Assembly (NCBI GenBank): GCA_905234185.1
Contig: CAJOGC010000002.1
Coordinates: 103,949 to 167,948 of the forward strand
Reading direction: 5' to 3'
Length of the DNA: 64,000 nucleotides
DNA from: an uncultured Alphaproteobacteria bacterium
GTDB taxonomy: Bacteria > Pseudomonadota > Alphaproteobacteria > Rs-D84
Of the stretch, positions 1,213 through 45,359 are shown piece after piece (positions within the stretch are counted from its first letter, which is position 1; every line of letters begins with the position of its first letter). The notes below the pieces were generated by a model that saw nothing but the letters and a program-made list of their open reading frames with translations, was not told the origin of the DNA and searched no databases. The position numbers were made by a program, and so were the translations under genes.

Positions 1213-1233
1213 TTATTTTGGGTGCGGATTAAT

Positions 1234-11278: not shown

Positions 11279-12961
11279 ATGAAACAAAAGTCATACATTA
11301 TTGACGATAAACAACTGATGTCCGAATGGGACTGGGATGCCAATGTTGGTTTAGATCCGAAAACATTAACCCGTGGATCAAATAAAAAGGCATGGTGGGT
11401 ATGTTCGGTATGTGGGCATAAATGGTGTGCCGATATACATCATAGAGCCGTAAGAAAACAAGGTTGTTTAAACTGCCGATATGTATATAAAAAACAACTT
11501 GCTTCTATTTTGTCTGAAACACATCCAAAAGTCCTTAAATACTGGGATTTTTCAAAAAATAAATTGATAACCCCCGAAATTGTCAGCCAGAATTCGCGTA
11601 AAAGCGTTTGGTGGCATTGTCCAGATTGTGGCCATGAATGGGAAGAAAAAATAAAAAATCAGGTTAAAAAATTAGTTTGGTGCCCACATTGTAAGAAGGG
11701 AATTAAAGATTTGGCTTCTGTGGAACCAGAACTTGCAAAAGAATGGCATAAAACAAAAAATACTGATGCCCCAGAACATATTTCGTATGCTTCTAACAAA
11801 TATGCATGGTGGAAATGCCAAAAGTGTGGTTACGAATGGAAAGCCAGAATAGCCAACAGGTCAATATTGAAACGGGGGTGTCCTTGTTGTTCTGGTGGTG
11901 CGGTTGTCGTCGGAATAAACGATTTAAAAACAAAGTTTCCGCATATAGCAAAAGAATGGCACCCTACAAAAAACGGTGAACTTTTACCAGAACAAGTCAC
12001 TTCTGGTACAAGAAAGAAAGTTTGGTGGCAATGCCCACTGGGACACGAATACCAAGCAACGGTAGGACACAGGACATCACAAAATGGCACAGGGTGTCCA
12101 ATATGTTATTCAGGACGTCAAACATCATTCGCTGAACAGGCTGTATTCTTTTATGTAAAACAATTATATCCCGACGCACTAAGCAGGTATAAGGCAGACT
12201 TTTTGGGAAAATTTGAATTGGATATTTATATCCCATCAATCAAATATGCGATAGAATACGATGGTGAAGCATGGCATAAAGCGAATAAATTAGAACGCGA
12301 AAAACGAAAGTATCAATTGTGCAAACAGAACGGCATCACATTACTCAGATTACGAGAAAAGGAACCAGAACATGATGCTGAAGTGGCAGATGATATAATT
12401 TGTGTGAAAAATCTATACGAACACAGAAATCTTGAAATGGTATTAAGACGGTTATTGGTGAAATTGAACCCGCAATCGGTAATGCCTGACAACTTTGTTA
12501 ATTTGGCCAGGGATAATCATAAAATCTTGGAATATAAAAAATCGGCCATATCAGAATCATTGATGTCCGTCAGACCAGATATTGCGATGGAATGGCATCC
12601 AACAAAAAATGGTAACCTGTTACCAAGTATGTTTAAAGCAGGTTCTGAACATAAAGTATGGTGGATTTGTCCAAAGTGTGCCACCGAATATCAAACAAGT
12701 ATTGCTCATAGAACAGATAAAAAGGTTCCAACAGGATGCCCAAAGTGTGGCAAAGAGCGAAGTGACTTAGCGAAAAGTGTCGCTGTAAATATGTTAGATT
12801 TGAAAACGAAAAAAGTATTAAAAACATTCGTTTCTGTATCAGATGCATCAAGGCAAATGAAAATCAATTTATCTAACATATGTATGGCTTGCAAAGGCCA
12901 ACGCAACCAAGCTGGTGGGTACGGTTGGGAATATAATTTAAAAATATGCAAAAGAAAATAA
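11279..12961 (+). CDS. multi-zinc-ribbon protein with central DUF559/Vsr-like PD-(D/E)XK nuclease core and C-terminal NUMOD1-like HTH (homing-endonuclease-like)
   Basis: There are five repeats of [EW..KN...P + WW.C..CGH.W......R....CP.C]. The central block FELDIYIPSIKYAIEYDGEAWH...GITLLRLRE resembles the DUF559 core. The tail (FVSVSDASRQMKINLSNICMACKG..NQAGGYGWEY) resembles NUMOD1/IENR-type DNA-binding modules. Confidence 0.75.
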   Translation: MKQKSYIIDDKQLMSEWDWDANVGLDPKTLTRGSNKKAWWVCSVCGHKWCADIHHRAVRKQGCLNCRYVYKKQLASILSETHPKVLKYWDFSKNKLITPEIVSQNSRKSVWWHCPDCGHEWEEKIKNQVKKLVWCPHCKKGIKDLASVEPELAKEWHKTKNTDAPEHISYASNKYAWWKCQKCGYEWKARIANRSILKRGCPCCSGGAVVVGINDLKTKFPHIAKEWHPTKNGELLPEQVTSGTRKKVWWQCPLGHEYQATVGHRTSQNGTGCPICYSGRQTSFAEQAVFFYVKQLYPDALSRYKADFLGKFELDIYIPSIKYAIEYDGEAWHKANKLEREKRKYQLCKQNGITLLRLREKEPEHDAEVADDIICVKNLYEHRNLEMVLRRLLVKLNPQSVMPDNFVNLARDNHKILEYKKSAISESLMSVRPDIAMEWHPTKNGNLLPSMFKAGSEHKVWWICPKCATEYQTSIAHRTDKKVPTGCPKCGKERSDLAKSVAVNMLDLKTKKVLKTFVSVSDASRQMKINLSNICMACKGQRNQAGGYGWEYNLKICKRK

Positions 12962-16472: not shown

Positions 16473-16506
16473 AAAAAAAAACACCGGCAAACGCCGGTGT
16501 TTTTTT
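16473..16506. terminator. bidirectional terminator
   Basis: A9-CACCGGCaaaCGCCGGTG-T7. Confidence 0.7.
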
Positions 16507-16897
16507 ATTCCCAATAGTCATCATAATAATCCGTTTTGGTTGTTTTTTTCTTCATAACAGGGGTTGTTTTTTGTTTCGTTTTCTTCTTTTTTTCCGTATA
16601 TGCAAATTTCCATTGTTTATAACTTAATGGTGTTTTTCCTTGTTTATCACAATTTACTAAATATTTTCTGTATTTTTCTCGTTGATTTTTACGCTTTTTG
16701 TTTTCTTGTTTTCCATATTCTATACCAATAGATAGCATTGTTATTGCGAATATTACCGCAATATAACCAATAGATAATATTATCCAAAACAAAGAACGAA
16801 TGACAACATCATCTAAACTGGCAAAAGCAGGAAAAGAGCAAGTTAAAAATAAAGACACAAAAAAGATGATTTTTTTCATTTTCTTTTCCTCTTTCAT
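16505..16897 (-). CDS. small membrane protein with Lys-rich tail
   Basis: It has a signal-like N-terminus (MKKIIFFVSLFLTCSFPAFA), one further TM helix, and a strongly basic tail (KKRKNQREKYRK...KKKKTKQK...KKK). It overlaps the upstream gene by 4 nt. Confidence 0.55.
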   Translation of the reverse strand: MKEEKKMKKIIFFVSLFLTCSFPAFASLDDVVIRSLFWIILSIGYIAVIFAITMLSIGIEYGKQENKKRKNQREKYRKYLVNCDKQGKTPLSYKQWKFAYTEKKKKTKQKTTPVMKKKTTKTDYYDDYWE

Positions 16898-17169
16898 TCA
16901 TCTAATAGATCATTTAAAATCTCTATCGCCATTTTTCCGAATCTGGCGCCATTGAAAGAAACTTTATTACTTAATACATTTGCTTGCAGTTGATGTCTTA
17001 GAGCTCTGATACTGTCCTTGCTTGGGATAGTATTAAAATAATTGTTTATTATATAATTAAAGAATTCTTGACTTTGGGCATGTGTTATTTGGTTTGCCAC
17101 AAACCGTACGTTTGATTTACCGCCCATAGAAAAATAAATCCCTTTTACGATATCATCTAGTATGAACAT
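16894..17169 (-). CDS. hypothetical protein, 91 aa
   Basis: The start is moved to ATG 17169 (MFILDDIV), which has an AAGGGG RBS. The track start TTG 17214 lies inside the upstream terminator hairpin. Confidence 0.5.
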   Translation of the reverse strand: MFILDDIVKGIYFSMGGKSNVRFVANQITHAQSQEFFNYIINNYFNTIPSKDSIRALRHQLQANVLSNKVSFNGARFGKMAIEILNDLLDE

Positions 17170-17195
17170 TATCAGCCCCTTGGTGTATATTTTAT

Positions 17196-17403
17196 AAAAA
17201 ACAAAACCGCCCAAGAAAGAGCGGTCGGGGAGTTAGAAAATCAGTTAAGTATGACTCCGCGGTCTTTAGATATACACACGCGGCTCCCCAACCATAGGTC
17301 AGGGATGATTACGGTGCAAAAACACCGAAACATCATTTTAACGATGCTTTCGCACCGACTTAACAGGACTTTCTACAGCCCGAACCCAATCTCTTGGATT
17401 CAT
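17196..17403 (-). ncRNA. candidate structured leader/attenuator RNA, copy A (unclassified)
   Basis: It starts downstream of a TTGCAA-16-TATAAT promoter and ends in a hairpin plus U-run just 5' of the RBS of the 16894 gene. It shares ordered conserved blocks and covarying helices with copy B at 26766..26982. Confidence 0.55.
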
Positions 17404-17408
17404 TTCTT

Positions 17409-17436
17409 ATTATACCTTATTTATGCCTAATTGCAA
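17409..17436 (-). promoter_or_regulatory. sigma70-like promoter of leader RNA A
   Basis: On the minus strand: TTGCAA (17436..17431), a 16-nt spacer, then TATAAT (17414..17409). Confidence 0.6.
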
Positions 17437-17449
17437 ACAGATTGATTTA

Positions 17450-17483
17450 TCATTGCGAGGGAGCATAGCGACCGCGGCAATCC
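17450..17483. repeat. short palindromic repeat (CATTGCGA...CAATCC type)
   Basis: tCATTGCGAGGGAGCATAGCGACCGCGGCAATCC. A related unit lies at 24971..25002. Confidence 0.6.
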
Positions 17484-17489
17484 ATAAAA

Positions 17490-17616
17490 ACTACCCCGCC
17501 ACTTCGTGACACCCCTTCGCTCGCGAAGGGGATTTTACTTTCTGGAATCATAGCATAAATCCCCTTCACTGTGTGAAGGGGTGGATTGCGAACGTTAGTG
17601 AGAAAGACGGGGTAGT
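17490..17616 (+). repeat. PAL-A palindromic element, copy 1 (~127 bp)
   Basis: The terminal inverted repeats are CTACCCCG...CGGGGTAG. The internal hairpins are CCCCTTC..GAAGGGG x2 and a central CTGGAATCAT. Related copies lie at 25701..25835 and 27027..27100. Confidence 0.8.
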
Positions 17617-17618
17617 CC

Positions 17619-17686
17619 CCTGCCCCCTTGTGGGGCGGGATAGATTTATTTACGAACAAAGTGAGTTAATAAATCTTGGGTGGGGG
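17619..17686 (+). repeat. PAL-B element arm (CCTGCCCCC...CTTGGGTGGGGG)
   Basis: It has the same conserved ends as 39430..39501. It forms an inverted pair with 17707..17786 across a 20-nt spacer. Confidence 0.8.
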
Positions 17687-19364: not shown

Positions 19365-19444
19365 AAGAACACCTTTCCTTATGGACTTTTATCATAGGAA
19401 AAATATCGTTGCGATGCAATCAAATAAAATCCTATACTGGAACT

Positions 19445-21376
19445 ATGAATGAAACATTGGAAAATCAACGGCCTAATCTGTTTTTGTGGGTGCCATTTGT
19501 AATGGCGGCGGGGGCGGCGTTATATTTTTCGTGTTCGCATGAACCGAAACTGCCGTTTTGTTGGTTGTTTGCTATTATTACATTTTGCGCCGCGGCGTTT
19601 TTGCGCACGCCAATCATTATTCGCGGAATATTACTTTTTGTTTTTGGTTTTTGTTATGCGAACGCTTACACAAATATGCTTGATACACCAATTATGCCAC
19701 GCGACATGCACGATATAAGTATTACTGGTCGCATTACGGCAATTGACCATACACCCGACAAAGCCAGAATTTTTATTCGTGTGCCAAACCCAGTCCTTAA
19801 TATAAAAGCGAATGGCGATTCAATTGTTCGTGTTTCTGTTGAACTGGATACTGTTCCGAAACCAGGCGACATAATATCAACAACCGCGACACTGTTCACG
19901 CCAACCCCACCAGACATATATGGCGGGTTCGACTTTGCACGATGGGCATATTTCAACGGAATTACCGCGACGGGATATGCGGACAATATAACAATATCAT
20001 CGAACGGCACAACAAATAATATTCGTGATTGGTTGCACAATAAATCAGATTCCATATTAGTGGACAGTTTAGTACTGGGGTATAAAAACACTTTACCAAA
20101 GGCGGAACGCGCAACTTGGGTGTCCGCCGGTGTCGGACACATTTGGTCAATAAGTGGTTTTCATATGACATTAATCGGTGGTTGGCTGTTTGCGATTTTC
20201 TATTTTATATTTCGTTGCATACCGTCCGTTGTTCGTCGCATACCGGCACGACACATTGCGGCAATATTCGCATGGATTGGCGTTATGATTTATTTATTCG
20301 TATCAGGCATGGGGGTTGCAACAATTCGCGCCTTTTTAATGGCAACGTTATTAATGGTCGCCGCGATTATGGGACGGTCCGCTTTTTCATTACGCAATGT
20401 ATGCTTGGTGTTTTGTTTAATATTTTTGATAAACCCATATTATGTGATGACCGCCGGTTTTCAATTATCGTTTTCCGCAATATTCGGATTGGTATGGTTT
20501 TGGACCGTGGTTAACCCAAAACTGCCTGAAAATAGAATATTGCGCACATTGTGCACCGCTGTTTTGACAGCGACAATCGCATCACTTTTTACTGCACCAT
20601 TTGTCGCATTGCATTTTTATTCGGTACCATTATACAGCATTATTGGCAACCTGGTCTTGTTACCAATATTTTCATTTGTAATAATGCCGCTGGTAATAAT
20701 TGGATCACTGCTTGCATTATTTAATGTTTATTTTCCATTACATATCGCGGATTATGCTTACCATTGGGCGCTGGACATTGCGAATCACATATCACATTTG
20801 CCGTTTGCAACAATGACACCGGCACATGTTTCCAACACTGCAATTTGTTTTATCGTTTTTGGCATGATGTGCATCGTTTTTGTTCGCCCGGTCCGGCTAA
20901 AGATTAATTATATTCTAGGTGCAATTTTTATCTTAATCGGCACAATTATTGTTGCCGCAACCCCACGACCTGTTTTCTTTGCGACACCGGATCACGAACT
21001 GGTTGGTGTTGTACAAAATGGTGAAATATTATTTAACAAATCACGCGCATCAAACCACTATTTTGCATTTGATATATGGAAACATTTAACCAACAGCGAT
21101 ATAAATACACAAAACAATCGTGCAAAACATAATCGCGGATTGTATATCTTTGAAACGCCGAAATATAAAATTGCATATATACAGAAATTCACAGCATTAC
21201 AAAATAACATCGCTAAACTTTGCGACGATGAAAATATAGATTTTATAGTTTCATATCTGGAAATAAATGGCGACCGTTGTGCAAACAAGATTTTGCATGG
21301 TGGTTTTACAATTTATGAAAACGGGAAAATTATTTATGTACCGACATCTCGTCGTTGGAATAATCTGCACCAATAA
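19445..21376 (+). CDS. comEC: ComEC/Rec2-family DNA internalization channel protein (no recognisable metallo-beta-lactamase motif)
   Basis: The protein is polytopic and has a competence-domain block (VGHIWSISGFHMTLIGG). ATG 19445 (MNETLENQRPNLFLW) is preferred over TTG 19409. I see no HxHxDH motif in the C-terminal part. Confidence 0.8.
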   Translation: MNETLENQRPNLFLWVPFVMAAGAALYFSCSHEPKLPFCWLFAIITFCAAAFLRTPIIIRGILLFVFGFCYANAYTNMLDTPIMPRDMHDISITGRITAIDHTPDKARIFIRVPNPVLNIKANGDSIVRVSVELDTVPKPGDIISTTATLFTPTPPDIYGGFDFARWAYFNGITATGYADNITISSNGTTNNIRDWLHNKSDSILVDSLVLGYKNTLPKAERATWVSAGVGHIWSISGFHMTLIGGWLFAIFYFIFRCIPSVVRRIPARHIAAIFAWIGVMIYLFVSGMGVATIRAFLMATLLMVAAIMGRSAFSLRNVCLVFCLIFLINPYYVMTAGFQLSFSAIFGLVWFWTVVNPKLPENRILRTLCTAVLTATIASLFTAPFVALHFYSVPLYSIIGNLVLLPIFSFVIMPLVIIGSLLALFNVYFPLHIADYAYHWALDIANHISHLPFATMTPAHVSNTAICFIVFGMMCIVFVRPVRLKINYILGAIFILIGTIIVAATPRPVFFATPDHELVGVVQNGEILFNKSRASNHYFAFDIWKHLTNSDINTQNNRAKHNRGLYIFETPKYKIAYIQKFTALQNNIAKLCDDENIDFIVSYLEINGDRCANKILHGGFTIYENGKIIYVPTSRRWNNLHQ

Positions 21377-23972: not shown

Positions 23973-24863
23973 ATGATAGCAAAGGATTACCAAATGACAA
24001 CCTATATTTTAATATTGCTTGGATTAATTGTAATTATGCTGCTTATCCTGCTTTTTCGCCGTCCAACGGTGGATATTTCGGGTCTGCGCGAAGACAATGC
24101 CCGTCTGCGTGAACGCTTGGCGGAACGCCTGGGCGCACTGTCGCAAAACGCAATTGAATTAAAGAACATCAGTGCCGATATCGCGAATTTCAAAAATATA
24201 CTTATGGGCAACAAACAGGCGCGTGGAACATTTGGTGAACGTCAGTTGGCGGATATTGTGACCGACATTATGCCACCAGAAACCTATGATTTTCAGCACG
24301 TTTTGCCAACCGGCGTTCGTCCCGATTGCATTATTCGCCTGCCGTATCCGCCGGGGGATATGATTATTGACAGCAAGTTTCCACTGGAATCATACAACCG
24401 CATGGTCGCGGGCGATGACGGTGCCAAGAAGCAATTTGAATTAGATGTTCGTAAGCATATTGATGCAATTGGCGAAAAATACATTATTTCCGGCACAACT
24501 GCGGAATCGGCGATGATGTTTATTGCATCGGAATCTATATTTGAATCATTGCACCGCGATTTTCCGGCGACGATTGACTATGCCGCGCGTCGTAAAGTAT
24601 TCATTGTTTCGCCATCAACATTATGGGCGACATTGAACACAATTCGTGCGGTATTATCCGACATAAAAATCAAACGCGTTGCCGCCCAGATAAAAAAAGA
24701 ATTGGAATACTTGATTGCTGATCTGGACCGTCTGTCTAAACGCGCGGGGGCAATTGATCAACATTTCGCATCGGCGCAAAAAGACCTTGATGAATTACAA
24801 ACATCTATTGGAAAAATTGCACCGCGCGCCGAAAAGATTCGCGAACTTGATTTCGGGGAATAA
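23973..24863 (+). CDS. rmuC: DNA recombination protein RmuC (short form)
   Basis: It has an N-terminal TM helix and the conserved RmuC nuclease-like core (RPDCIIRLP...MIIDSKFPLESY...FIASESIF). Confidence 0.85.
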   Translation: MIAKDYQMTTYILILLGLIVIMLLILLFRRPTVDISGLREDNARLRERLAERLGALSQNAIELKNISADIANFKNILMGNKQARGTFGERQLADIVTDIMPPETYDFQHVLPTGVRPDCIIRLPYPPGDMIIDSKFPLESYNRMVAGDDGAKKQFELDVRKHIDAIGEKYIISGTTAESAMMFIASESIFESLHRDFPATIDYAARRKVFIVSPSTLWATLNTIRAVLSDIKIKRVAAQIKKELEYLIADLDRLSKRAGAIDQHFASAQKDLDELQTSIGKIAPRAEKIRELDFGE

Positions 24864-24871
24864 CCGCAATG

Positions 24872-25002
24872 TCATCCCCGCGCAGGCGGGGATCCACTGC
24901 GCCGCAGGCACTATAAATTTGTCACTGCGCGGCAATGGATACCGGCCTTCGCCGGTATGACCCAAAGAGTGGATTGTCATTGCGAACAATGCGAAACAAT
25001 CC
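24872..25002. repeat. cluster of short palindromic repeats
   Basis: Three hairpin units are present: GTCATCCCCGCGCAGGCGGGGATCC, ATACCGGCCTTCGCCGGTAT and GGATTGTCATTGCGAACAATGCGAAACAATCC. They are related to units at 17450 and 27105. Confidence 0.7.
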
Positions 25003-25009
25003 AGTATTT

Positions 25010-25621
25010 TTATTTCTCAATTCGACAACCAGTTTTTCGGTCAATCCACACCTGTTCACCGGCCAATTTCATTATCGGCATATCGGACGAACTGTCGGAA
25101 TAGGAACGCACCACAACCGGCGCAACTTTATTTTTCTGGGCCCATTTGTTTAATGCAACAACTTTATTTTTGTTATAGCACAGAAAATGATATTTCCATG
25201 GGTATTTCGCATACATTTCGGAACAAATAACATCGTCAAATTCCATGTCCGCCACCAATGGCCGCAACAGGTAATTTGGCGATGCCGAAATTAATAAAAC
25301 AATGTTTCCCGCCGCGCGTTCTGCGGCAACCCTTTCCGCCGCCCACCCAAAGCGATTTAATTTGTGTTGTTTGATGAAACCGGGGCCCAGGCGTTTAACC
25401 ATTTTTGCATTGATAAAACGACGTCCTATCTCTCGCCACCACTTTGCGTTTGGTGCAAAATGCCGAAACGACATTCCGAACGCGGTCAATGGCAAAAACA
25501 GCCACGCACGAAAACTGTGCCGAAAACAGTATTTACCAAATTCATAATTTGCATCGTGCGCCGACAACGTCCCATCAAAGTCAAAAATAACAACATTAAC
25601 TTTCTTTGCTTTACTTGGCAT
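25010..25621 (-). CDS. HAD-superfamily hydrolase (subfamily IB-like)
   Basis: The start is moved to ATG 25621 (MPSKAKKVNVVIFDFDGTLS). The DxDGT motif I and a late SDSSSD motif are present. Confidence 0.75.
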   Translation of the reverse strand: MPSKAKKVNVVIFDFDGTLSAHDANYEFGKYCFRHSFRAWLFLPLTAFGMSFRHFAPNAKWWREIGRRFINAKMVKRLGPGFIKQHKLNRFGWAAERVAAERAAGNIVLLISASPNYLLRPLVADMEFDDVICSEMYAKYPWKYHFLCYNKNKVVALNKWAQKNKVAPVVVRSYSDSSSDMPIMKLAGEQVWIDRKTGCRIEK

Positions 25622-25700
25622 TTCGTGCTCCTTTACTTCTACGATTATAACAATATTTCGCACAACAGCAAATCTAAAAAACACCGACGCCCGCCGTCAC

Positions 25701-25835
25701 CACTACCCCGCCTCGTTCCACTCGGCACCCTTTCACTGGAGTGAAGGGGAATTAAATTATCTGGAATCATATACCAGGTAATAAAAAATCCCCTTCATTG
25801 TATGAAGGGGTGGACGCGTAGCGGACGGGGTAGTG
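25701..25835 (+). repeat. PAL-A palindromic element, copy 2
   Basis: CACTACCCCG...CGGGGTAGTG termini with internal CCCTTTCACTGGAGTGAAGGGG and CCCCTTCATTGTATGAAGGGG hairpins. Confidence 0.8.
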
Positions 25836-25883
25836 ATGAACCAGAGTGTAGCATTCCCCCTTTAACGAATACAACAAATTGGA

Positions 25884-26747
25884 TTATTCATCCACACCGT
25901 AAATAAAATCGCCTGTGCCGGAATTACCATAAAACTTCTGTCCAACAACATCCCACATGCCATTTGCCGGAACCGTATAATTACCAATCACCATACCGGC
26001 GGGGACCGGAATAAAGTGTCCCAACAAAGTATCACCATTATATATCACAACATCATACCAATTCATCGTTCGTGACCAATATTCATCCCACCACGAACCA
26101 AAAACAATTGTATCTTCACCAGTTGCGACATAATTAATATCAAATGTTTGTTTAGTTCGTTCTTTGAATTGTGCACATGTTAAATCAGGAAAAACACGTA
26201 ATAATCTTGGGGCCCTATTATTCAACGACACTATACCACTGCTATAAGTTATGTAATTTGTCCCCAAAACGTTAGGGAAGGCACTACTACTGGCAAAAAA
26301 CATTGCGCGGTCTTCATAGCCTCTTGGTGGCGTTTCTATGTGTCTGTATCCAACTGTAAAAACGACCCTGCTGGAATCCAACCAATTTACACCTGTATCT
26401 ATATTATTTAAATACCCGTTTGTTACATCGTTTTGTATTTTCAAATACACATCGTCGTCCGCACCAACCAGACAATCACCAACAAACCAATGATGCCCCA
26501 CGTGTGTCTTGGTGCCAATGCATGCACTGTATACAGCATTATCATACATAACATGCAATGTATTTGTCAGATTTTTTCGAACCATTGGTATATGATAAAC
26601 ACTGCCGTTATCGGTCATTATATTAAAAGATGGCATTCCGAACTTTTCAGCATGTGCCGGTATGGACGCATTACCAATGCGCAATGCATAGCCCCAACAA
26701 ATTGTTGGTGCCAATATCAATAAAAATATTACTAATATTTTTCTCAA
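25884..26747 (-). CDS. secreted hypothetical protein (~287 aa)
   Basis: A signal peptide is present (RKILVIFLLILAPTICWGYA). The start is uncertain: TTG 26747 is preferred because TTG 26768 lies in the U-run of the upstream terminator. The C-terminus ...GQKFYGNSGTGDFIYGVDE recalls beta-sandwich tail-fibre or lectin-like proteins, but only weakly. Confidence 0.6.
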   Translation of the reverse strand: MRKILVIFLLILAPTICWGYALRIGNASIPAHAEKFGMPSFNIMTDNGSVYHIPMVRKNLTNTLHVMYDNAVYSACIGTKTHVGHHWFVGDCLVGADDDVYLKIQNDVTNGYLNNIDTGVNWLDSSRVVFTVGYRHIETPPRGYEDRAMFFASSSAFPNVLGTNYITYSSGIVSLNNRAPRLLRVFPDLTCAQFKERTKQTFDINYVATGEDTIVFGSWWDEYWSRTMNWYDVVIYNGDTLLGHFIPVPAGMVIGNYTVPANGMWDVVGQKFYGNSGTGDFIYGVDE

Positions 26748-26765
26748 CCCCGAATTCCCCAACCG

Positions 26766-26982
26766 CAAAAAATAACCGTCAATCTGTGGACTGACGGTCG
26801 GGGTGTTCGAAAATCATATACAACAATGACCCTGTGATTTTTACACCACAGCACCCCGACCTTTTATATCGGGGTTTGGTAACGACACAAATGCGTATGA
26901 TTTCTTAAGCGATTACGGACGCACTTGCACCGGTTGTATATGGGCTTTCGACGGCCCCGAACCTGTGCCACCACAGATTCAT
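26766..26982 (-). ncRNA. candidate structured leader/attenuator RNA, copy B (unclassified)
   Basis: It lies downstream of a TTGCAT-18-TATAAT promoter. It ends in CCGTCA-gtccacagat-TGACGG + TTATTTTTT immediately 5' of the 25884 gene. Its blocks are conserved and its helices covary with copy A. Confidence 0.55.
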
Positions 26983-26987
26983 TTCTT

Positions 26988-27017
26988 ATTATAAAACATT
27001 TGGTATATTTTATGCAA
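26988..27017 (-). promoter_or_regulatory. sigma70-like promoter of leader RNA B
   Basis: On the minus strand: TTGCAT (27017..27012), an 18-nt spacer, then TATAAT (26993..26988). The 18 nt from the -10 box onward (TATAATAAGAAATGAATC) are identical to copy A. Confidence 0.6.
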
Positions 27018-27026
27018 TATTAAAAA

Positions 27027-27100
27027 CACTACCCCGTCACTTCGTGACACCCCTTCGCACGGCAAAGGGGATTTTTAGTATCTGGAATATGATTCCATAG
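27027..27100 (+). repeat. PAL-A element, truncated copy 3 (left half)
   Basis: CACTACCCCGTCACTTCGTGACACCCCTTCGCACGGCAAAGGGGATTTTTAGTATCTGGAAT... matches the left half of copies 1 and 2. Confidence 0.7.
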
Positions 27101-27104
27101 AACT

Positions 27105-27129
27105 GTCATCCCTGCGATGGATGGGAATT
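27105..27129. repeat. short palindromic repeat (GTCATCCC...GGGAAT type)
   Basis: GTCATCCCTGCGATGGATGGGAATT, related to 24872..24896. Confidence 0.6.
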
Positions 27130-27130
27130 A

Positions 27131-27176
27131 TTACTTTTTCAATTTATCGGTTATTTTATTACGCAGGATTCCCCAT
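27131..27176 (-). repeat. relic copy of the 3' end of the RND pump gene
   Basis: The minus strand reads ATGGGGAATCCTGCGTAATAAAATAACCGATAAATTGAAAAAGTAA. The true RND 3' end (27750..27712) reads ATGGAAAACCTGCGTAATAAAATAACAGGAAAGAAATAA, with an identical 18-nt core. Confidence 0.65.
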
Positions 27177-27251
27177 ACTGTTTGATAGATCTTGTGTAAG
27201 AGTATATGATGAATAACCCCATAAAAAATACCAGCATTTGCCGGTATTTTT

Positions 27252-27710
27252 TTATTTTTGTAATTCACGGCGGATGGCCATCAGGGTTTTTCCGATTCTG
27301 TTTTCGCCACTGCCGATTCCAAACCCACATTTATAGCAAACTGGGCATGCTTTTATCAAAATCGCATCGCCGGTACTTTTTAACAATTCTGCCGCGTCTG
27401 CATTTTGTTGAAACTTTGCATGCAATGCGTTTTCCATAATTTCAAATTTACGTTTATCAAAGTCCGCGCGACGATTGACTTTATATTCCGGTGTTTTTGT
27501 TATCAGACGGGCATCATCGGCATTTTTCATATTCAAAATCACATCAAAACGCGGGTCCGATGCGTAAAACTTCATTGCCTGGTAATAATGTTCCGCGGAC
27601 GGAAATACAAAATCGCGTCCATCAACATTCATTTTTATTGGGAACGATGCCAACGGTGATAAAAACCAGTATTCGCCCACTGGCGCACAAAATCGTATTT
27701 CCGTTGCCAT
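27252..27710 (-). CDS. NADAR (DUF1768/YbiA-like) family protein
   Basis: YWFLSPLASFP...FPSAEHYYQAMKF...KFEIMENALHAKFQQN...LLKSTGDAILI...GFGIGSGENRIGKTLMAIR fits the NADAR pattern. It starts 1 nt after the RND stop. Confidence 0.8.
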   Translation of the reverse strand: MATEIRFCAPVGEYWFLSPLASFPIKMNVDGRDFVFPSAEHYYQAMKFYASDPRFDVILNMKNADDARLITKTPEYKVNRRADFDKRKFEIMENALHAKFQQNADAAELLKSTGDAILIKACPVCYKCGFGIGSGENRIGKTLMAIRRELQK

Positions 27711-27711
27711 A

Positions 27712-30700
27712 TTATTTCTTTCCTGTTATTTTATTACGCAGGTTTTCCATCACCACGAATAATGCCGGGGTTAATGTAAATGTCCAAACCATGGATGCCA
27801 ACATACCGCCAATCAAAACCGCCGCCATTGCGATTTTCATATCGTCACCACCGAACAACTGGGGTGCCATACCGGCCGCGACAGCGATTGATGTCATCAA
27901 AACCATATTCTTGCGTCCGGTTAATTCGGTCCACAGTGCTTCGGCAACCGACGCACCGGCACGAATACGATTAATCGCCGGTTCCAACACCAAAATACTG
28001 TTATTAACCACTAAACCCACCAACATAACAAACGCCAACATAGCCCCAACATTCATTGATGCGCCCGAAATAAACAACATTAAAAACACACCCGCAAAAC
28101 TGGTTATAATTGCCGTTGAAATGGTTAACGGATGAATCAGCGAATTTAAAATCGCCGCCAATAACATAAATGTTAATAGCGCAGCAAGTAAGAATGCCTG
28201 GCCTATTTCACTGGTCGAATCGCTTTGGGTTTCCGACATCCCGCCAAATTCATATGTGTACCCCGGTTGCCAATCCATATTTTTCAATACTTTTTCAATT
28301 TTTGCCTGGACCGGTCCCAAAGTGGATTTGCCAAGGTTAATATCGATTTCGGTAATTCTGTTTTTATCCAAACGACGAATATCCGGTGTTGCGGGTGCTA
28401 TTTCACGACGCCCCAGTTGCGACAGTGCAACCATACCTTTGTTTGAATTAACGTATACAACATCAAATAAATTTTGTGTTTTAAACGGTTTTGCAAATTC
28501 CAAAATTATCGGATATTCGTTCCCGTGTTCTTTATACTTATATGTATCATTTCCATACAGCGCATAACGCAACACGGTTCCTGCATACGAATTTTTTACG
28601 CCCCAAAAGTCCATTTTATCGGCATCGGGTATAAAACGAACCTCGTTTGCGGGTTTCTGTTGCGCAAGTACCGCCGATTGAATTTCCTCTATTTTATTTA
28701 TTTCCGCAATGATTTGATTTGCATAGTCTTCACGAATGTCATCGTTTTCACCATAGACATTTAATACAATATCGCTGGATATACTGGACATAGACATACC
28801 CGCACGAATTTGTATTTCCGCATCAACAATATCTTTCAGCATTGGCAACATTTCCTGGGCCAATTTTTTATCGGATTTGAAACGTTTTGATTTATCAATT
28901 AATTCGACACGCATGGTTATGTTCTGCAGCCCTTGGTCGCCAATTTTTGCGGTTAATGATTTTACCTCTGGCAAATCGGATAACCGTTGTTCAATCGCAT
29001 TTGTGATTTCCAGCGACTTTTCATATGTCGCCCCCATTGGGGCACGCGCGGTAATTGTAATTTCATTTACATCAGTTGCCGGCGAAAATTCGTTTCCAAC
29101 AAATCGCATCAAAAATGTCGATGCAATCAATACTAAAAACGCAAGTCCAACAACACGTCCCGCGTGCGCCATTTGATATTCAAACCACCGGCGCAACCAT
29201 GACGATTTTCGTTCTGTCTTTTTAGCGGCCGCTTCTTTGCGTGCAATTTCGCGTTTGTTTTCATCGGTTAATCGCAGGAATTTTGCAATCATCATTGGGG
29301 TTAATGTAAAACTAAATATCAACGACAGTACGGTTAAATACACAACTGTCAAACCAAACTGAATCATAAATTTACCAACAATACCGCCCATAAATGCCAA
29401 CGGTAAAAACACCACAACATTCGTCCCAACCCCAGCCAGAACGGATACAGCAACATTTTTCGTACCGTCGATTGCGGCAGTTTCTGAATCTTTGCCGGCA
29501 CGCATTTCTTGCAATGCGGATTCAATCAAAATAATGGCGTTTGATACCAGTGTCCCCAATGCCGACGAATATGCCAACAATGTCATCGCATTGATTGTAA
29601 AACCACTGGCATACATAAATTCAAACCCCGCAAACAATGATGCCGGAATTACAACACCCGCGATAACGGTGGAACGCCAATTTCGCGTAAACGCCAACAA
29701 CACCAAAATTGTGAATACAACACCAAGAATAATTCCGTTAATCGTGTCGTTTGTATCGTTTAAAATCTCGGTCGAGGCATCGGAAATAATTTCCATCTCT
29801 GCATTTTCATTTGGGAAATGCACCGCAAAATCCGCATTTAATTCCGGCAATTTTTTACGCAGTGCACGGGAAATTTTGATCGCATTACCATCATTCGCTT
29901 TTTCCACAGAAGCAATAACCACATCTGTATTATTATAGCGCGCGCCCTTTTCAATATCGCGCGCCGCATCGGTGACGGATGCAACATCTGACAATCTGAA
30001 ACGGATGCCTTCGTTTGTCGTTATTGGCAAATCTGCGATTTCATCAACAGATGAAAATTCACCGATAAAGCGCACATTTTGTGATGTCGCGCTGTATTCG
30101 ATTTTACCACCCGGCACATTTAAATTTTTATTCCCCAGCGCCGTTAAAACATCCATTATCGTGACACCATGCGCCGCCAACAAATCAGGATCCATCGCGA
30201 CACGAATTGCACGTTCACGACCACCAAATGTAGAAACCTTGGCCACACCATCAATCGCGGTAATTTTGTTCGCCAAAACATCATCAATGTATTGATTAAT
30301 ATCCGTCGCCGATGGGCCACGCAAAACTATATCAACCACCGCCTGTTGCAATGGGTTCATTTTTTCCACAACCGGCTGTTTCAAGTCATCTGGAAATTCA
30401 GACGCCAAAGCGTCTATTTTCGTTTTAACTTCGGCTGCTTTATCATTTGCATCAACCCCCAGGTTGAATTCGGTCATGATATAACCGCCGTTTTCAAAAA
30501 TACGCGAAGTAATATGTTTTATACCCGGCACTTCGGATATGGCATCTTCGGCGCGTTTAATAACCTGGGACTCTATTTCATCACTTGACGCACCGGGATA
30601 CACAAATGTTGCCGTAACCATCGGAAAATCCAGCGACGGCGTACGTTCAATGTTCATTTTAGGATATGCAACCACCCCCAGCAACACCCAAACCAAAACG

Positions 30701-30744
30701 AACATCAATGTGGTAATCGGACGACGAACAAAGAACTTTAACAT
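27712..30744 (-). CDS. RND-family efflux transporter, inner-membrane pump (AcrB-like)
   Basis: At 1010 aa it has the 12-TM architecture with two large periplasmic loops and a typical N-terminus (FFVRRPITTLMFVLVWVLLG). Confidence 0.9.
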   Translation of the reverse strand: MLKFFVRRPITTLMFVLVWVLLGVVAYPKMNIERTPSLDFPMVTATFVYPGASSDEIESQVIKRAEDAISEVPGIKHITSRIFENGGYIMTEFNLGVDANDKAAEVKTKIDALASEFPDDLKQPVVEKMNPLQQAVVDIVLRGPSATDINQYIDDVLANKITAIDGVAKVSTFGGRERAIRVAMDPDLLAAHGVTIMDVLTALGNKNLNVPGGKIEYSATSQNVRFIGEFSSVDEIADLPITTNEGIRFRLSDVASVTDAARDIEKGARYNNTDVVIASVEKANDGNAIKISRALRKKLPELNADFAVHFPNENAEMEIISDASTEILNDTNDTINGIILGVVFTILVLLAFTRNWRSTVIAGVVIPASLFAGFEFMYASGFTINAMTLLAYSSALGTLVSNAIILIESALQEMRAGKDSETAAIDGTKNVAVSVLAGVGTNVVVFLPLAFMGGIVGKFMIQFGLTVVYLTVLSLIFSFTLTPMMIAKFLRLTDENKREIARKEAAAKKTERKSSWLRRWFEYQMAHAGRVVGLAFLVLIASTFLMRFVGNEFSPATDVNEITITARAPMGATYEKSLEITNAIEQRLSDLPEVKSLTAKIGDQGLQNITMRVELIDKSKRFKSDKKLAQEMLPMLKDIVDAEIQIRAGMSMSSISSDIVLNVYGENDDIREDYANQIIAEINKIEEIQSAVLAQQKPANEVRFIPDADKMDFWGVKNSYAGTVLRYALYGNDTYKYKEHGNEYPIILEFAKPFKTQNLFDVVYVNSNKGMVALSQLGRREIAPATPDIRRLDKNRITEIDINLGKSTLGPVQAKIEKVLKNMDWQPGYTYEFGGMSETQSDSTSEIGQAFLLAALLTFMLLAAILNSLIHPLTISTAIITSFAGVFLMLFISGASMNVGAMLAFVMLVGLVVNNSILVLEPAINRIRAGASVAEALWTELTGRKNMVLMTSIAVAAGMAPQLFGGDDMKIAMAAVLIGGMLASMVWTFTLTPALFVVMENLRNKITGKK

Positions 30745-30753
30745 TTTTTACCC

Positions 30754-31371
30754 TTACTTTATAACCCTTACTAAATCACCATCGGCAATGTGCGATGTAA
30801 TAATAATGTCACCATCGGACACACCCGTTATCATTGTGTGTTCACCATCGCCGCGCACAATATCAATTGAAACAGCATGCGCCACCCCATCGCGCACAAC
30901 GAACACTGTCCCATTTTTAACCGCATCCGTCGGAATATAAAAACCATTTTCGCGAATCTCGACAGTATGCGCGCCATTTGTTGCACCACGTGTACGCACA
31001 ATATGCATACCCGTATCCAGATCCAGCGATGTCGACACAGATACTACTTCGCCGCCACCTGTAATTTTTTGGCCTGGTTTAAACCGTGCGACACGCATGC
31101 CGGAAACATAGCCCCGATTATCATTCACAAATAATGGTTCGTAAATAATACCATCTGACTTTTGGGCGCTCATAACACTTACCGGCACACCATGCAGTTC
31201 CGAATCGCGTGCCATATTGAATACGGATTTATAATGCTCTACGCCGAACGCAACGAAGCGATATATTACCAATATTATAAACATCGCGCCACCAATCTGC
31301 ATCACGATATGATTACGACGATGCGAGTCCATATTCTTAATTTTTACTATTAACTTTTTCATATTATTCAC
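30754..31371 (-). CDS. short periplasmic adaptor (MFP)-like protein of the efflux operon
   Basis: It has an N-terminal TM anchor followed by beta-barrel and membrane-proximal-like sequence. It sits between the OMF and RND genes. At 205 aa it lacks room for the usual lipoyl and coiled-coil hairpin. Confidence 0.6.
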   Translation of the reverse strand: MNNMKKLIVKIKNMDSHRRNHIVMQIGGAMFIILVIYRFVAFGVEHYKSVFNMARDSELHGVPVSVMSAQKSDGIIYEPLFVNDNRGYVSGMRVARFKPGQKITGGGEVVSVSTSLDLDTGMHIVRTRGATNGAHTVEIRENGFYIPTDAVKNGTVFVVRDGVAHAVSIDIVRGDGEHTMITGVSDGDIIITSHIADGDLVRVIK

Positions 31372-32707
31372 CCAATTTTTTCACGGATTCTGCCGCCATT
31401 AAAATTTGATATTTAGAGTTAAGCAATGCTATATCTAATTGATACAGACCGGACGAAGCTTCGGCTAATTCAATAGCGGATGTTTGACCGGCGATAAAAC
31501 GTTGACGCGAAAAATCGTATGCACGCGCCGCCAAATCACGCGCATTTTGCAATGTTGTCAAATTACTGCGCAAATGGTCATATTGTAAAACAGCAGTATT
31601 ATATTTTTCGGTTGTGATTTTTTTCGACTTGTCTAAATCTTGGCGCACAGCTTCGGCATTCATGGCATCGACCGTGGCGTTTGCCCGATTCAGCCCACCG
31701 GAAAAAATCGGAACCTGTAATGCCAGCCCCCAATACGCCGACTGATTACCCTTTTTATCAAACAATTCACTGCTGGCATTTCCAATACTGGTATAACTGT
31801 ACGATGCGGTGGCCGCCAGTGTCGGCAACGCACCATCGCGTTTAGACCGCGCAGATTTTTCATACATACGAATTTGCTGATTCAGAATGTCCCATTCGGG
31901 GGTATTTGTTAATGGTTTTGCATTTAAATTCGCGAAATCTTTTGGGAATTCCGTGGTAAGATTTATTTCCGCATCCGCATCGATTCCCGCCAAAATTTTA
32001 AGCATACGATACGCCGTATCACGATTGAATTGCGCATTTGACAGTTGTATTTCTTTGGTTGCAATATCAGATTCAATTTTTACCAAGTTTCCACGACTGG
32101 CGCGCCCCGCCGATGCCAAATTACGACGCGCATCACGTGCAGACTTTAAGTCTTGTTCGGAAATTTTCACAATTTCATCGGTCATTTTCGCGGTCCAATA
32201 CAGGTCAACCGCGCTATATTTAACCTCTCGACGGACCAATTCGCGGTTTGTTTCGGACATTTTAACGGCACTGCGAACAGATTCAACCGCGTTACCAATT
32301 TTACCGAATGTATAAATAGGCTGTGTTAATGTTAAACCCGCCATTAAAATATTATCGGGCATTTCAATTTGTGTGACCGGACCTTCTGCCTGCATCAATT
32401 GTCCAACCAACCCGCCCAATTGTGGGGGCAATTGCATATTCATAGAACCACTGAACGGATGCGCAACATCAACAAGGTTCATGTATGTCGCCGACCCCTC
32501 TAATGTAAACCAACGATTGGCATTCGCAGCATCCAACGAAGCCTGGGCTTTCTTAATATTTGCGTCGGCCTTTTTAACATCTTGGGATTCCGCCAAAATT
32601 TTAGCAACCACATCGTCCAACGACAATTCTGTTGCAAGGACCGGCGTTCCGGTCATAGCCAACAATACGGCAAATAAAACATGCGTAAATTTTCGCATTT
32701 TATGCAA
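31364..32707 (-). CDS. TolC-like outer-membrane efflux protein
   Basis: It has a signal peptide and the duplicated OEP repeat architecture with coiled-coil-rich sequence. Confidence 0.85.
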   Translation of the reverse strand: MHKMRKFTHVLFAVLLAMTGTPVLATELSLDDVVAKILAESQDVKKADANIKKAQASLDAANANRWFTLEGSATYMNLVDVAHPFSGSMNMQLPPQLGGLVGQLMQAEGPVTQIEMPDNILMAGLTLTQPIYTFGKIGNAVESVRSAVKMSETNRELVRREVKYSAVDLYWTAKMTDEIVKISEQDLKSARDARRNLASAGRASRGNLVKIESDIATKEIQLSNAQFNRDTAYRMLKILAGIDADAEINLTTEFPKDFANLNAKPLTNTPEWDILNQQIRMYEKSARSKRDGALPTLAATASYSYTSIGNASSELFDKKGNQSAYWGLALQVPIFSGGLNRANATVDAMNAEAVRQDLDKSKKITTEKYNTAVLQYDHLRSNLTTLQNARDLAARAYDFSRQRFIAGQTSAIELAEASSGLYQLDIALLNSKYQILMAAESVKKLGE

Positions 32708-33143
32708 CCTCCATATTCGATAAAACCTTGTTGATTGTCGTCATGGCATCGGTTAATTTCTTTTCGTCTTCGCGGGAAAGTTTTGCGAAAACCGTGCTGA
32801 TATTATTCTCGAAATCGGCAATCATATTACGCGCAACATCGGCACCAGCGGGGGTGACGCTGTACCAAGTATTGCGGCGATCTTTTGCATCCACCTCGCG
32901 CAGGACCAAACCTTTGGCCTCCAGGTTTTTGAATGTTGCACACAAATTTGGTGTGGTTGTAAATTCGCGATATGCAATATCTTTCAACAGTGCGCGTCCC
33001 CCAAGGTAAAGCCGCACCAAAACACTCATTTGCGAACGCGTATATTCCATATTTTTTATCATTTTGGACTTCATACGGTCCATCAACCGATCCATTATCG
33101 TCATATTTTCTTCGATTAAACGAATAAATTCTTTGCGCGCCAT
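32700..33143 (-). CDS. MarR-family transcriptional regulator
   Basis: The start is moved to ATG 33143 (MARKEFIRL). The winged HTH is present (MSVLVRLYLGG...LKDIAY...NLEAKGLVLREVDAKDRRNTWYSVTPAG). Confidence 0.8.
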   Translation of the reverse strand: MARKEFIRLIEENMTIMDRLMDRMKSKMIKNMEYTRSQMSVLVRLYLGGRALLKDIAYREFTTTPNLCATFKNLEAKGLVLREVDAKDRRNTWYSVTPAGADVARNMIADFENNISTVFAKLSREDEKKLTDAMTTINKVLSNMEVA

Positions 33144-44145: not shown

Positions 44146-44652
44146 ATGAACAAACCATTAAAAAACTATTTACAAAGAATAATAAAAAACGAATATGTTT
44201 CTGTATATCATGACTATGATGGTCAAAAAACTACATATTCTATTCCATATAACGCATCGCTTGCACCACGATCGGTAAGGTTGACATTGATTCGCGCGCT
44301 GGGGTTGGACTATGACGATGATTTTGATGAAAACAATCCGCAAGACATAGACAAAATGTCATACAACCTGATTGCGGACGAAACCCCATTGTTTTCGTTA
44401 ACATCCGATCATTATATAAACAATCGTGGCACTCTTATGACCCACTATATTTTGGACTTTGATGGTCAGGTACTTACCGAAAAATCCTATAAGTCGGATA
44501 AATTAAGCGGGAAAAATCCGCTAATCCAATTAATGCGCAAATGTTCCGACAAAATAATAGCCCAGGAACAGGCCGCCCAAAAATACAAAATGGAAAAAAT
44601 GTTTGTATCAACAAATATATTTACACAGAATGTGCAACACGACAGAATGTGA
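44146..44652 (+). CDS. hypothetical protein, paralog of the 43277 gene
   Basis: The start is moved to ATG 44146 (MNKPLKNYL) to avoid overlap with the previous gene. It shares an acidic DDDFD(E/D) patch and the C-terminal helix with the first gene. Its 3' end overlaps the convergent comF gene by 32 nt. Confidence 0.5.
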   Translation: MNKPLKNYLQRIIKNEYVSVYHDYDGQKTTYSIPYNASLAPRSVRLTLIRALGLDYDDDFDENNPQDIDKMSYNLIADETPLFSLTSDHYINNRGTLMTHYILDFDGQVLTEKSYKSDKLSGKNPLIQLMRKCSDKIIAQEQAAQKYKMEKMFVSTNIFTQNVQHDRM

Positions 44653-45352
44653 CCCCATATACCGCAACTGCGCCCGCATCCACCAACACACGTCGCAATT
44701 CGTTAAATGTCGCACCCGTTGTCATAACATCATCAACCAATAAAATTTTCTTGCCCTGGATTTTATCGGGTTTACACACGGTAAAAACATTACGAATATT
44801 TCGTGCGCGTTGGGCACTGGTTTTATGTCCCATATTTTCACGATATTCGCGCGACACAGAATCTAAATCCATTTTTACACCAAACACATGTGCAATTGGG
44901 CGCGCCAGTAATGTCGCCTGGTTATATCCACGTTGGAACAATCTGCGCCGTGCAAGTGGAACCGGCATAACTATATCAGGTTCTATATCGACATCACGCA
45001 ACGCCCAAATCATCGCACGCGACATAAAACGTGCATACTGAATGTGTCCCGCATGTTTATATGGCAACATCGCCGCACGTGATGCATCATCATATACACA
45101 TGCCGACCGAATTAAATCCAATTCACATTTTCCAGACGCGCATGTTGGACACATCATATTTGGCCCCATATCAAAACTGGACGCAAACGGGAAACCACAA
45201 TGAATACATTTTGCACCATCAATCCAATTAAACGATGCCCAACAATCAACACATAATTCACCATGCGTTTCGACATGCGCATTACACAACGGACACGATG
45301 GTGGAAAAATAAAATCTATTAAATCCTGCAAATACCGGCGCCCAGATTTCAT
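44621..45352 (-). CDS. comF: ComF-family phosphoribosyltransferase-domain protein
   Basis: The N-terminal Cys clusters (PPSCPLCNA...CVDCW...CIHCG...CPTC) and the PRTase loop (ILLVDDVMTTGAT) are present. The start is moved to ATG 45352. Confidence 0.8.
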   Translation of the reverse strand: MKSGRRYLQDLIDFIFPPSCPLCNAHVETHGELCVDCWASFNWIDGAKCIHCGFPFASSFDMGPNMMCPTCASGKCELDLIRSACVYDDASRAAMLPYKHAGHIQYARFMSRAMIWALRDVDIEPDIVMPVPLARRRLFQRGYNQATLLARPIAHVFGVKMDLDSVSREYRENMGHKTSAQRARNIRNVFTVCKPDKIQGKKILLVDDVMTTGATFNELRRVLVDAGAVAVYGVTFCRVAHSV

Positions 45353-45359
45353 CGCGCAA

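Follow-up and report, generated by a model that had tools for sequence, protein, structure and literature searches.

Background

How does a single accessory gene come to lie between two copies of the 3' end of its upstream neighbor? This question is raised by an efflux locus in a 64,000-nt stretch of contig CAJOGC010000002.1 (hereafter the window, analyzed at its full length), which comes from an uncultured gut/rumen alphaproteobacterium related to Candidatus Enterousia. In this locus a gene for a NADAR-family protein directly follows the RND pump gene of an operon with the order MarR-OEP-(adaptor)-RND pump, and a second, partial copy of the pump 3' end, which we refer to as the relic, lies on the far side of the NADAR gene. 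Unless stated otherwise, all genes discussed are located on the minus strand.

The locus was compared with related loci, designated here by L numbers. A scan of one genome per species provided 12 orthologous loci, all from uncultured gut/rumen Alphaproteobacteria (some named Candidatus Enterousia), and further loci were obtained by a metagenome scan (47 loci) and by contig look-up (approx. 20 loci), for a total of approx. 80 related loci. As two independent assemblies, made from different samples (L013 from ENA and L014 from Logan), show the arrangement with 100% identity, an assembly artefact is unlikely.

The relic is an old pump 3' end

The RND (AcrB-family) pump gene (27712..30744, minus strand; 1010 aa; Pfam ACR_tran, E = 1.8e-182) ends with ATGGAAAACCTGCGTAATAAAATAACAGGAAAGAAATAA (27750..27712). 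A preliminary description of this DNA had placed the start of the NADAR gene one nucleotide past this end, a terminator belonging to the NADAR gene behind it and, further on, a diverged second copy of the pump end with an identical 18-nt core, and all of these positions and sequences were reproduced here, i.e., the NADAR gene (152 aa) occupies 27252..27710, terminator T1 occupies 27223..27251 (a hairpin followed by a U-run; -15.7 kcal/mol, z = -5.4), and the relic, ATGGGGAATCCTGCGTAATAAAATAACCGATAAATTGAAAAAGTAA, occupies 27176..27131, all on the minus strand. The relic thus lies 575 nt downstream of the functional pump end, past the NADAR gene and its terminator, and includes 43 to 46 nt with its stop codon; the securely homologous part is 27131-27173. 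A count over the 64 kb gave exactly two occurrences of the 18-nt core (27150-27167 in the relic and 27725-27742 in the functional copy), also with 3 mismatches allowed, as compared to an expected number of 0.15; two occurrences were reached in 0 of 100 shuffles.

Translated in the pump frame, the relic reads ...LRNKITDKLKK*, which is the type of pump end found in alleles that lack the NADAR gene. In ungapped alignments with the stop codon in register, the relic matched the NADAR-less pump ends of L052 (ITGKFKK*) and L010 (ITDKSKK*) in 37 and 35 of 43 positions, respectively. When the L052 43-mer was used as a probe, the relic was the top match in the whole window (37/43), as compared to 31/43 (ungapped) for the window's own functional pump end, which is two codons shorter, and to a background maximum of 25/43; none of 200 shuffled probes reached 37. 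When all pump ends were compared against all downstream regions in approx. 60 related loci, only the window scored, and no relic-like duplication of the end of the upstream gene was found after NADAR genes at non-pump sites.

A dispersed palindromic repeat (designated PE) starts 3 nt past the relic stop codon, and we considered and rejected the relic as a part of this repeat, as other PE copies (17480-17620 in the window, and copies in L016, L017, L076 and L082) carry no relic-like sequence. The concern, raised with the preliminary description, that the relic might match a dispersed repeat family rather than the pump thus did not materialize: the relic is specifically an old pump 3' end. The relic itself is non-coding and without function.

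The pump and the NADAR gene have different nearest relatives

To identify the nearest relative of each part of the locus, identity was profiled in 500-nt tiles over 14 kb. L022 or L010 was the nearest relative in nearly every tile (75-90%), both upstream (MarR, OEP and pump) and downstream (def, fmt and beyond), with the exception of a patch at RmuC where L003 and L026 lead; the body of the pump gene is accordingly of the type found in the L022/L010 clade, which lacks NADAR. L075 showed just 72-85% identity to the window backbone. For the NADAR tile, on the other hand, identities were 92% to L072 and 87% to L075, and the NADAR gene shows 93% nucleotide identity to L072/L073. Among 66 pairs of NADAR-bearing loci, pump and NADAR identities typically differ by no more than approx. 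3 points, and the pair formed by the window and L072 showed the largest discordance of all (78.2% for the pump versus 93.0% for NADAR).

The alignment also located the point at which similarity switches. The pump is L010/L052-like up to ...AATAAAATAACA, and sequence of this resident type runs to ...CTGCGTAATAAAATAACA (27724). Identity to L072 starts at GGAAAG------AAATAA TATGGCAACGG; from GGAAAG------AAATAA-T-ATGGCAACGG onward the window matches L072 through NADAR and T1, such that sequence of the L072 clade spans GGAAAGAAATAA-T-ATG, the NADAR gene and T1. The switch point therefore lies between 27724 and 27721, within pump codons -6 to -4. It separates the functional copy of the duplicated segment (27724..27750, minus strand; pump approx. 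-45 to -19), which is of the resident type and holds the 18-nt core, from a replacement tail, (G)GAAAGAAATAA (27712..27723, minus strand), which encodes GKK*, is identical to the tails of L072-L075, and contains an AGGA Shine-Dalgarno-like motif for NADAR.

The two terminators of the locus show the same split. T1, with the form ...GGTATTTTTT, is of the L072-clade type, while a second terminator, T2 (25675..25699, minus strand), is a degenerate remnant of the resident terminator with a 3' arm, CGGTGTTTTTT, of the L052/L010 type, and is followed by an L052-like promoter of the downstream HAD gene. Between T1 and the relic lies a 46-nt junction or filler (27177..27222, minus strand) with ATGGGG at both borders. 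The anatomy of the locus, the homologies of its parts and their phylogenetic discordance are matters of direct observation.

NADAR genes in the pump-HAD gap of related loci

A NADAR gene directly behind the orthologous pump gene, with a spacing of 1 to 12 nt, was found in L002, L003, L004, L007, L012, L015, L023-L026, L065, L069-L075 and L082. The preliminary description had regarded the tight coupling of NADAR to the pump as unusual; within this clade it is not, as it occurs in more than 15 loci, none of which carries a relic. Relatives with NADAR on this operon and no relic had also been named as evidence that would count against an insertion. Such relatives do exist, in the literal sense, but they do not actually refute an insertion in this particular lineage. 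NADAR is missing from approx. 40 other loci, including L010, L022 and L052, whose pumps are the closest in sequence to that of the window.

Alleles of the same clade have a common terminator and a common HAD promoter whether or not they carry NADAR (e.g., L006 and L007), and the hairpin behind NADAR, found in NADAR-less alleles as well, is the terminator of the locus itself. NADAR therefore behaves as a clean insertion or deletion that is exchangeable through its flanks; its borders lie between the pump stop codon and the terminator, and are flanked by AARTAA(A). Moreover, a G-rich Shine-Dalgarno-like motif in or just past the pump tail is present in every NADAR-bearing allele, but generally not in NADAR-less tails and not in the relic. 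NADAR homologues with 73-74% identity were also found at other sites, i.e., after rpoD and a 198-aa open reading frame (ORF) in L078-L080 and, in L081, near, though outside, another MarR-OEP operon. As these close homologues sit elsewhere, the link between pump and NADAR is frequent but not obligatory.

The pump-HAD gap is a recurrent hotspot for small insertions. Its downstream border, the HAD-IB hydrolase gene (25010..25621, minus strand, in the window), is conserved in nearly all related loci, and the gap holds a PNP_UDP_1 nucleoside-phosphorylase-like gene in L075 (5516-6286), an ORF family of 231 aa with a HEFTHYLQG (HExxH) motif downstream of NADAR in L026 and L082, a reverse-strand ORF in L025, a 1.1-kb insert in L005, and PE elements inside the terminator in L025 and L082.

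A proposed history of the locus

We consider it fairly probable that a segment comprising pump tail, NADAR and T1 from the L072/L075 sister clade recombined into a NADAR-less allele, and that this duplicated approx. 27 nt and stranded the old pump end. The resident allele would have been NADAR-less like L010, L022 and L052, with a pump end of the form ...MENLRNKITxKxKK* followed by the terminator and the HAD gene, and with the module of an orphan gene, ORF294, also lying between these parts at some point. The donor would have been a member of the sister lineage in which NADAR already followed the pump. The left joint would lie in the last shared pump bases (ATAAC-GG, codons -6 to -4), with the incoming piece supplying the GKK* codons (which carry the AGGA ribosome-binding motif of NADAR), the NADAR gene and T1. 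The right joint would be illegitimate, with the 46-nt filler, and would lie approx. 27 nt upstream of the left joint; under this placement pump positions -45 to -19 would have been duplicated and the old end (27131-27176) left as a non-coding relic. Cotranscription of the NADAR gene with the pump is predicted, as is its coupled translation (TAA-T-ATG).

As NADAR is already located behind the pump in many relatives, the event would represent an exchange between alleles of the same operon rather than the arrival of a gene new to it. The preliminary description had proposed that NADAR was inserted just inside the pump end while bringing or duplicating a replacement 3' end. The core of this proposal is backed by the mosaic structure, but only approx. 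4 codons (GKK*) appear to have been imported, while the remaining approx. 27 nt would be a duplication of the resident target.

The direction and the mechanism of the event are what we infer from these comparisons. No recombinase would be involved, and a likely route would be homology-facilitated illegitimate recombination or a replication template switch, e.g., after DNA uptake. Homology-facilitated illegitimate recombination has been described for naturally transformable bacteria. The window resembles its products in that one joint lies in homology and the other is illegitimate with filler and microhomology (ATGG/ATGGGG), in that the DNA would come from a related strain, and in that the window encodes competence proteins (ComEC and a ComF-like protein). 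It differs in showing a short target duplication rather than a replacement or deletion, and both the uptake and the recombination process are presumed here.

Several points weigh against this reading. First, the 5' part of the relic (ATGGGGAAT) shows 3 to 4 differences from the functional copy in approx. 10 positions although the adjacent 18-nt core is identical, which is uneven for simple decay. Second, the sampled L072 locus is not the true donor, as its NADAR gene is only 93% identical to that of the window; a search for a closer donor returned P0014/L082, with a NADAR identity of 91% and with PE elements and the HExxH ORF after NADAR, but nothing like the 46-nt junction. Third, when the junction was compared with the terminator-HAD spacers of relatives and with the pump sequence upstream of the relic, matches were no better than those of shuffles (P = 0.14-0.99), and none of the loci compared yielded anything similar to it. 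Fourth, the predicted resident allele (an intact pump ending in ...ITDKLKK* followed by PE/ORF294) was found in none of the genomes searched: ORF294 homologues lay either at unrelated loci or on contigs of insufficient length to decide, and the last protein search returned only partial pumps with up to 88% identity. In addition, a linear fragment cannot produce a duplication in a single chromosome, such that sister chromosomes, a circular intermediate or a template switch would be needed; the transfer could formally have run from the window lineage to the L072 clade; and the allele of the L015-type strains (see below) requires a later deletion or replacement.

Alternative explanations

The alternative that survives best, although we consider it unlikely, reverses the order of events. 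It holds that pump(GKK*)-NADAR-T1-HAD was already present and that a fragment from a NADAR-less strain was inserted after T1. This fragment would have included the last approx. 45 nt of the donor pump, the PE/ORF294 module and the terminator remnant, such that the relic would be a passenger of ORF294; the right joint would be the product of homology within the terminator, the promoter or the HAD gene, the left joint would be illegitimate, and the similarity between the NADAR genes of the window and L072 would reflect a separate exchange. Consistent with this order, the relic lies within a window-specific stretch of 1.6 kb (25653-27251), from the NADAR stop codon to the HAD -10 box, that is extra in comparison with L002, L003 and the 99%-identical L015 and L069-L071. 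This stretch contains, in order, T1, the 46-nt junction, the relic, a half PE, a promoter with leader, ORF294, a full PE and T2. The ORF294 module is, moreover, mobile: its homologues (n = 11) were found at unrelated sites, i.e., after RNase HII, after RuvX and after a ketoacyl-ACP synthase gene, which indicates that ORF294 relocates together with its leader. PE has also repeatedly been inserted into this terminator elsewhere (L025 and L082), and exchange of NADAR between lineages is seen elsewhere, e.g., in L003 and L024.

On the other hand, the reverse order requires at least two events as well as independent losses of NADAR in L010, L022 and L052, while the exchange that we favor requires one event. 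It also leaves unexplained why resident sequence gives way to L072 sequence precisely where the duplicated segment ends on its downstream side. Furthermore, the empty site that it predicts (NADAR-T1-promoter) was not found in the L015-type strains. These strains (L015 and L069-L071), with a 99-100% identical backbone, carry NADAR with the same left joint, but no T1, relic, ORF294 or T2; a perfect 10-bp hairpin, GTTCCCATCCACTGGATGGGAAC (-18.6 kcal/mol; 1060-1110 in L015), replaces everything from T1 to T2, and the HAD -35 region and 5' untranslated region are diverged. A 10-mer of this hairpin, TTCCCATCCA, had one other occurrence in the set of sequences searched for it, just past the relic stop codon, and this shared 10-mer suggests that the L015-type strains may derive from a window-like state. 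An early view in which NADAR was ancestral and the relic arrived with ORF294, which was based on the broadly parallel divergence of NADAR and pump, was given up in view of the tile identities and of the position of the switch.

Site-specific integration of a NADAR cassette by a recombinase, in the manner of an integron or of phage e14 in icd, with the two pump-end copies representing attL and attR, is highly improbable. Integrative elements such as prophage e14 in icd and islands in tRNA genes bring a replacement 3' end, and the window shares with them an insert that supplies the functional gene end and is flanked by a direct repeat of the gene 3' end, with the displaced partial old end on the far side. 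The two situations differ in that the window shows no integrase or conserved att core, in that the segment is a single-gene piece of 0.55 kb from the same locus of a sister lineage, and in that the repeat is mostly a target duplication and not element-carried sequence. A search of the 575-nt unit for an integrase, a transposase or an attC-like site was negative, and Pfam scans of the 56 window ORFs identified no integrase or transposase families; the hallmarks of an integron gene cassette (attC, IntI and attI) are thus lacking, the hairpin after NADAR being the terminator of the locus. In addition, the repeats are identical only over 18 nt and then diverge, and neither the more than 15 other NADAR-bearing loci nor the non-pump NADAR sites show such a repeat. 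Finally, although the relic is A/T-rich and of low complexity, adjoins a PE and comes from a metagenome assembly, we give next to no credence to chance similarity, to an origin from PE or to an assembly chimera in view of the in-register match to orthologous pumps, the shuffled probes, the relic-free PE copies and the identical junctions in two assemblies reported above.

A NADAR subfamily with Lys and Cys at YbiA active-site positions

The NADAR protein matched the NADAR superfamily (PF08719) over residues 15-151 with 78.9 bits (cutoff 35.1; E = 6.6e-22), and its best solved relative is E. coli YbiA (PDB 2B3W, E = 2.3e-13). Its score against the riboflavin-intermediate N-glycosidase equivalog TIGR02464 (62.7 bits) was below the cutoff of 73.7. 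YbiA-type NADARs (PF08719) are known as riboflavin-intermediate N-glycosidases and guanine de-ADP-ribosylases. Residue roles in our alignment were taken from PMC11543638 and PMC11125620. Like YbiA-type proteins, the window protein has a clear NADAR domain, is a "naked" single domain of approx. 150 aa without N-terminal extension, and keeps the EHYxQxxK motif; its AEHYYQAMK motif is invariant in the alignments, and Glu40 and Lys47 are kept at the catalytic positions (equivalent to E43/K50 in the P. nicotianae enzyme and E88/K95 in E. coli C7; PMC11543638).

Unlike YbiA-type proteins, the window NADAR is located in an RND efflux operon, scores below the TIGR02464 cutoff, and shows Lys and Cys replacements. 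In the sequence alignment, the Glu of the last beta-strand that defines YbiA (E125 equivalent) is replaced by Lys, and the equivalents of D130 and W133 are both replaced by Cys (LIKACPVCYKCG), such that the protein, as judged from the alignment, would not belong to the YbiA subfamily. Of the 120 closest homologues, 107 carry the resulting motif, LIK(A/S)CPVCYKCG (K-x-C-P-x-C-Y-K-C-G), and 113 carry Cys8, giving four conserved cysteines (Cys122, Cys125 and Cys128 of CPVCYKC, and Cys8); more distant single-domain NADARs mostly have Glu at the position of the Lys. The subfamily forms one isolated cluster at 50% identity among 1.8 billion representatives, with more than 350 close members. As Lys and three Cys stand in place of the family's catalytic Glu, Asp and Trp, the chemistry of this NADAR may differ from that of YbiA, and the four conserved cysteines may mark a site for a metal or an Fe-S cluster where the active site used to be.

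The preliminary description had also pointed to NADAR antitoxins of DarT1 toxins. The window gene resembles the NADARs of DarT1-NADAR (DarTG1) and YarT-YbiA pairs in its fold and in being a small gene exchangeable between strains. In DarT1-linked NADARs, the YbiA fold is extended at its N-terminus and the key catalytic position is occupied by Asp (PMC11543638); the window protein (152 aa), in contrast, has Lys at this position and no extension. The search for a DarT-like partner in the 64 kb came up empty: no DarT, YarT or other ADP-ribosyltransferase was found adjoining NADAR (its neighbors being the RND pump, ORF294 and HAD) or in Pfam scans of the 56 window ORFs. In a PADLOC scan of the same ORFs (pseudo-alignment), the best 25 of 65 matched families were almost all UvrD-type helicase models.

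As to function, the NADAR protein probably serves a stress/efflux regulon as an accessory enzyme in the cytoplasm, either an N-glycosidase or a de-(ADP-)ribosylase. A more specific proposal, which we regard as rather unlikely, is that Lys/tri-Cys NADARs could constitute a new functional class, metal- or Fe-S-binding or redox-sensitive, and form, together with the RND pump under MarR control, a detoxification module of the "enzyme plus exporter" kind, with the C-terminal codons of the pump co-adapted as the NADAR ribosome-binding site. Such a module could, for example, remove (ADP-)ribosyl adducts or cleave a toxic nucleoside-like compound, with export of the product.

ORF294, its leader and the PE repeats

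ORF294 (25884..26768, minus strand) encodes an orphan protein, strain-specific at this site, with a hydrophobic, signal-peptide-like N-terminus as judged by eye from the translation; no matching family was found in Pfam, NCBIfam or PADLOC. It is preceded by a promoter and a conserved structured leader that ends in a terminator (26769..27024, minus strand). The leader comprises approx. 230-260 nt (26765-27026, minus strand; intrinsic terminator at 26774-26799), and further copies are found at 73-336 in L076 and at 5535-5800 in L016. It is 90% identical to the leader in L076, while the coding sequences are only 69% identical. A second copy in the window (approx. 17180-17445, minus strand) also ends in a terminator and lies upstream of unrelated small ORFs at 16505-17214. 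When four leader sequences were aligned, 18 of the 65 pairs predicted showed compensatory changes, and GGTCGGGGTG:CACCCCGACC may represent an antiterminator pairing. No Rfam family was found for the ORF294 leader or for the region as a whole. By these sequence features, the leader is a candidate for a new cis-regulatory RNA or attenuator.

PE represents a dispersed palindromic repeat family. The window holds a half copy at 27025..27128 (minus strand), a full palindromic copy at 25697..25839 (minus strand) and a third copy at 17480-17620; others were found in L017 (5480-5830), L076 (1-72), L082 (1520-1760), the terminator loop of L025, and L016. The repeat is composed of hairpins CCCCTTC...GAAGGGG, a central CTGGAAT...ATTCCAG, the ends CGGGGTAGTG, and TCCCTG..CAGGGATGACAG. 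PE occurs repeatedly in or beside intrinsic terminators, and flanks ORF294 in inverted orientation.

Other features of the operon and the window

The first gene of the efflux operon encodes a MarR-family regulator (32700..33143, minus strand; Pfam MarR; 147-aa gene call in L013), and is followed by the gene for an outer-membrane efflux protein (OEP/TolC-like; 31364..32698, minus strand; Pfam OEP, E = 8.6e-41). A 202-aa protein without Pfam match is encoded at the position of the adaptor (MFP; 30754..31362, minus strand), and is unusually short for an adaptor. Pump and outer-membrane components of a tripartite RND efflux system are thus clear, while for the adaptor position only the orthologue in L075 showed a weak YknX_C match.

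Elsewhere in the window, ComEC is encoded at 19409-21376 (plus strand) and a ComF-like protein (double zinc ribbon and phosphoribosyltransferase) at 44621-45397 (minus strand), and CagX/VirB9-like and TrbI/VirB10-like type IV secretion components are found at the window start (22-3621, plus strand); together these genes are compatible with DNA uptake. The RmuC region (23973-24999), which shows approx. 90% identity to L003/L026 as compared to 78-84% identity to the backbone relatives L022, L052 and L075, is another recombination or mosaic patch, adjoining the pump-HAD hotspot. We also observed a 560-aa protein with five DUF4379 treble-clef zinc-finger repeats and a DUF2726 domain (11279-12961, plus strand), as well as four consecutive ORFs of 403-478 aa (55579-60765, plus strand) without a Pfam family at E = 1e-4.

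Conclusions

Overall, the feature at this locus is best read as a fossil of an allelic gene swap and not as a new kind of system. The locus provides a datable record of a single accessory gene moving between operon alleles in uncultured gut/rumen bacteria without mobile-element machinery, in which both joints, i.e., the switch point in the last pump codons and the stranded old 3' end, are still legible. This record of gene gain is clear but fairly ordinary, and does not overturn current understanding. The more interesting part of the locus is the NADAR variant itself, as a subfamily that appears to lack the catalytic residues that define YbiA, yet is strongly conserved and often coupled to a pump, offers the ADP-ribosylation and N-glycosidase field a concrete variant.

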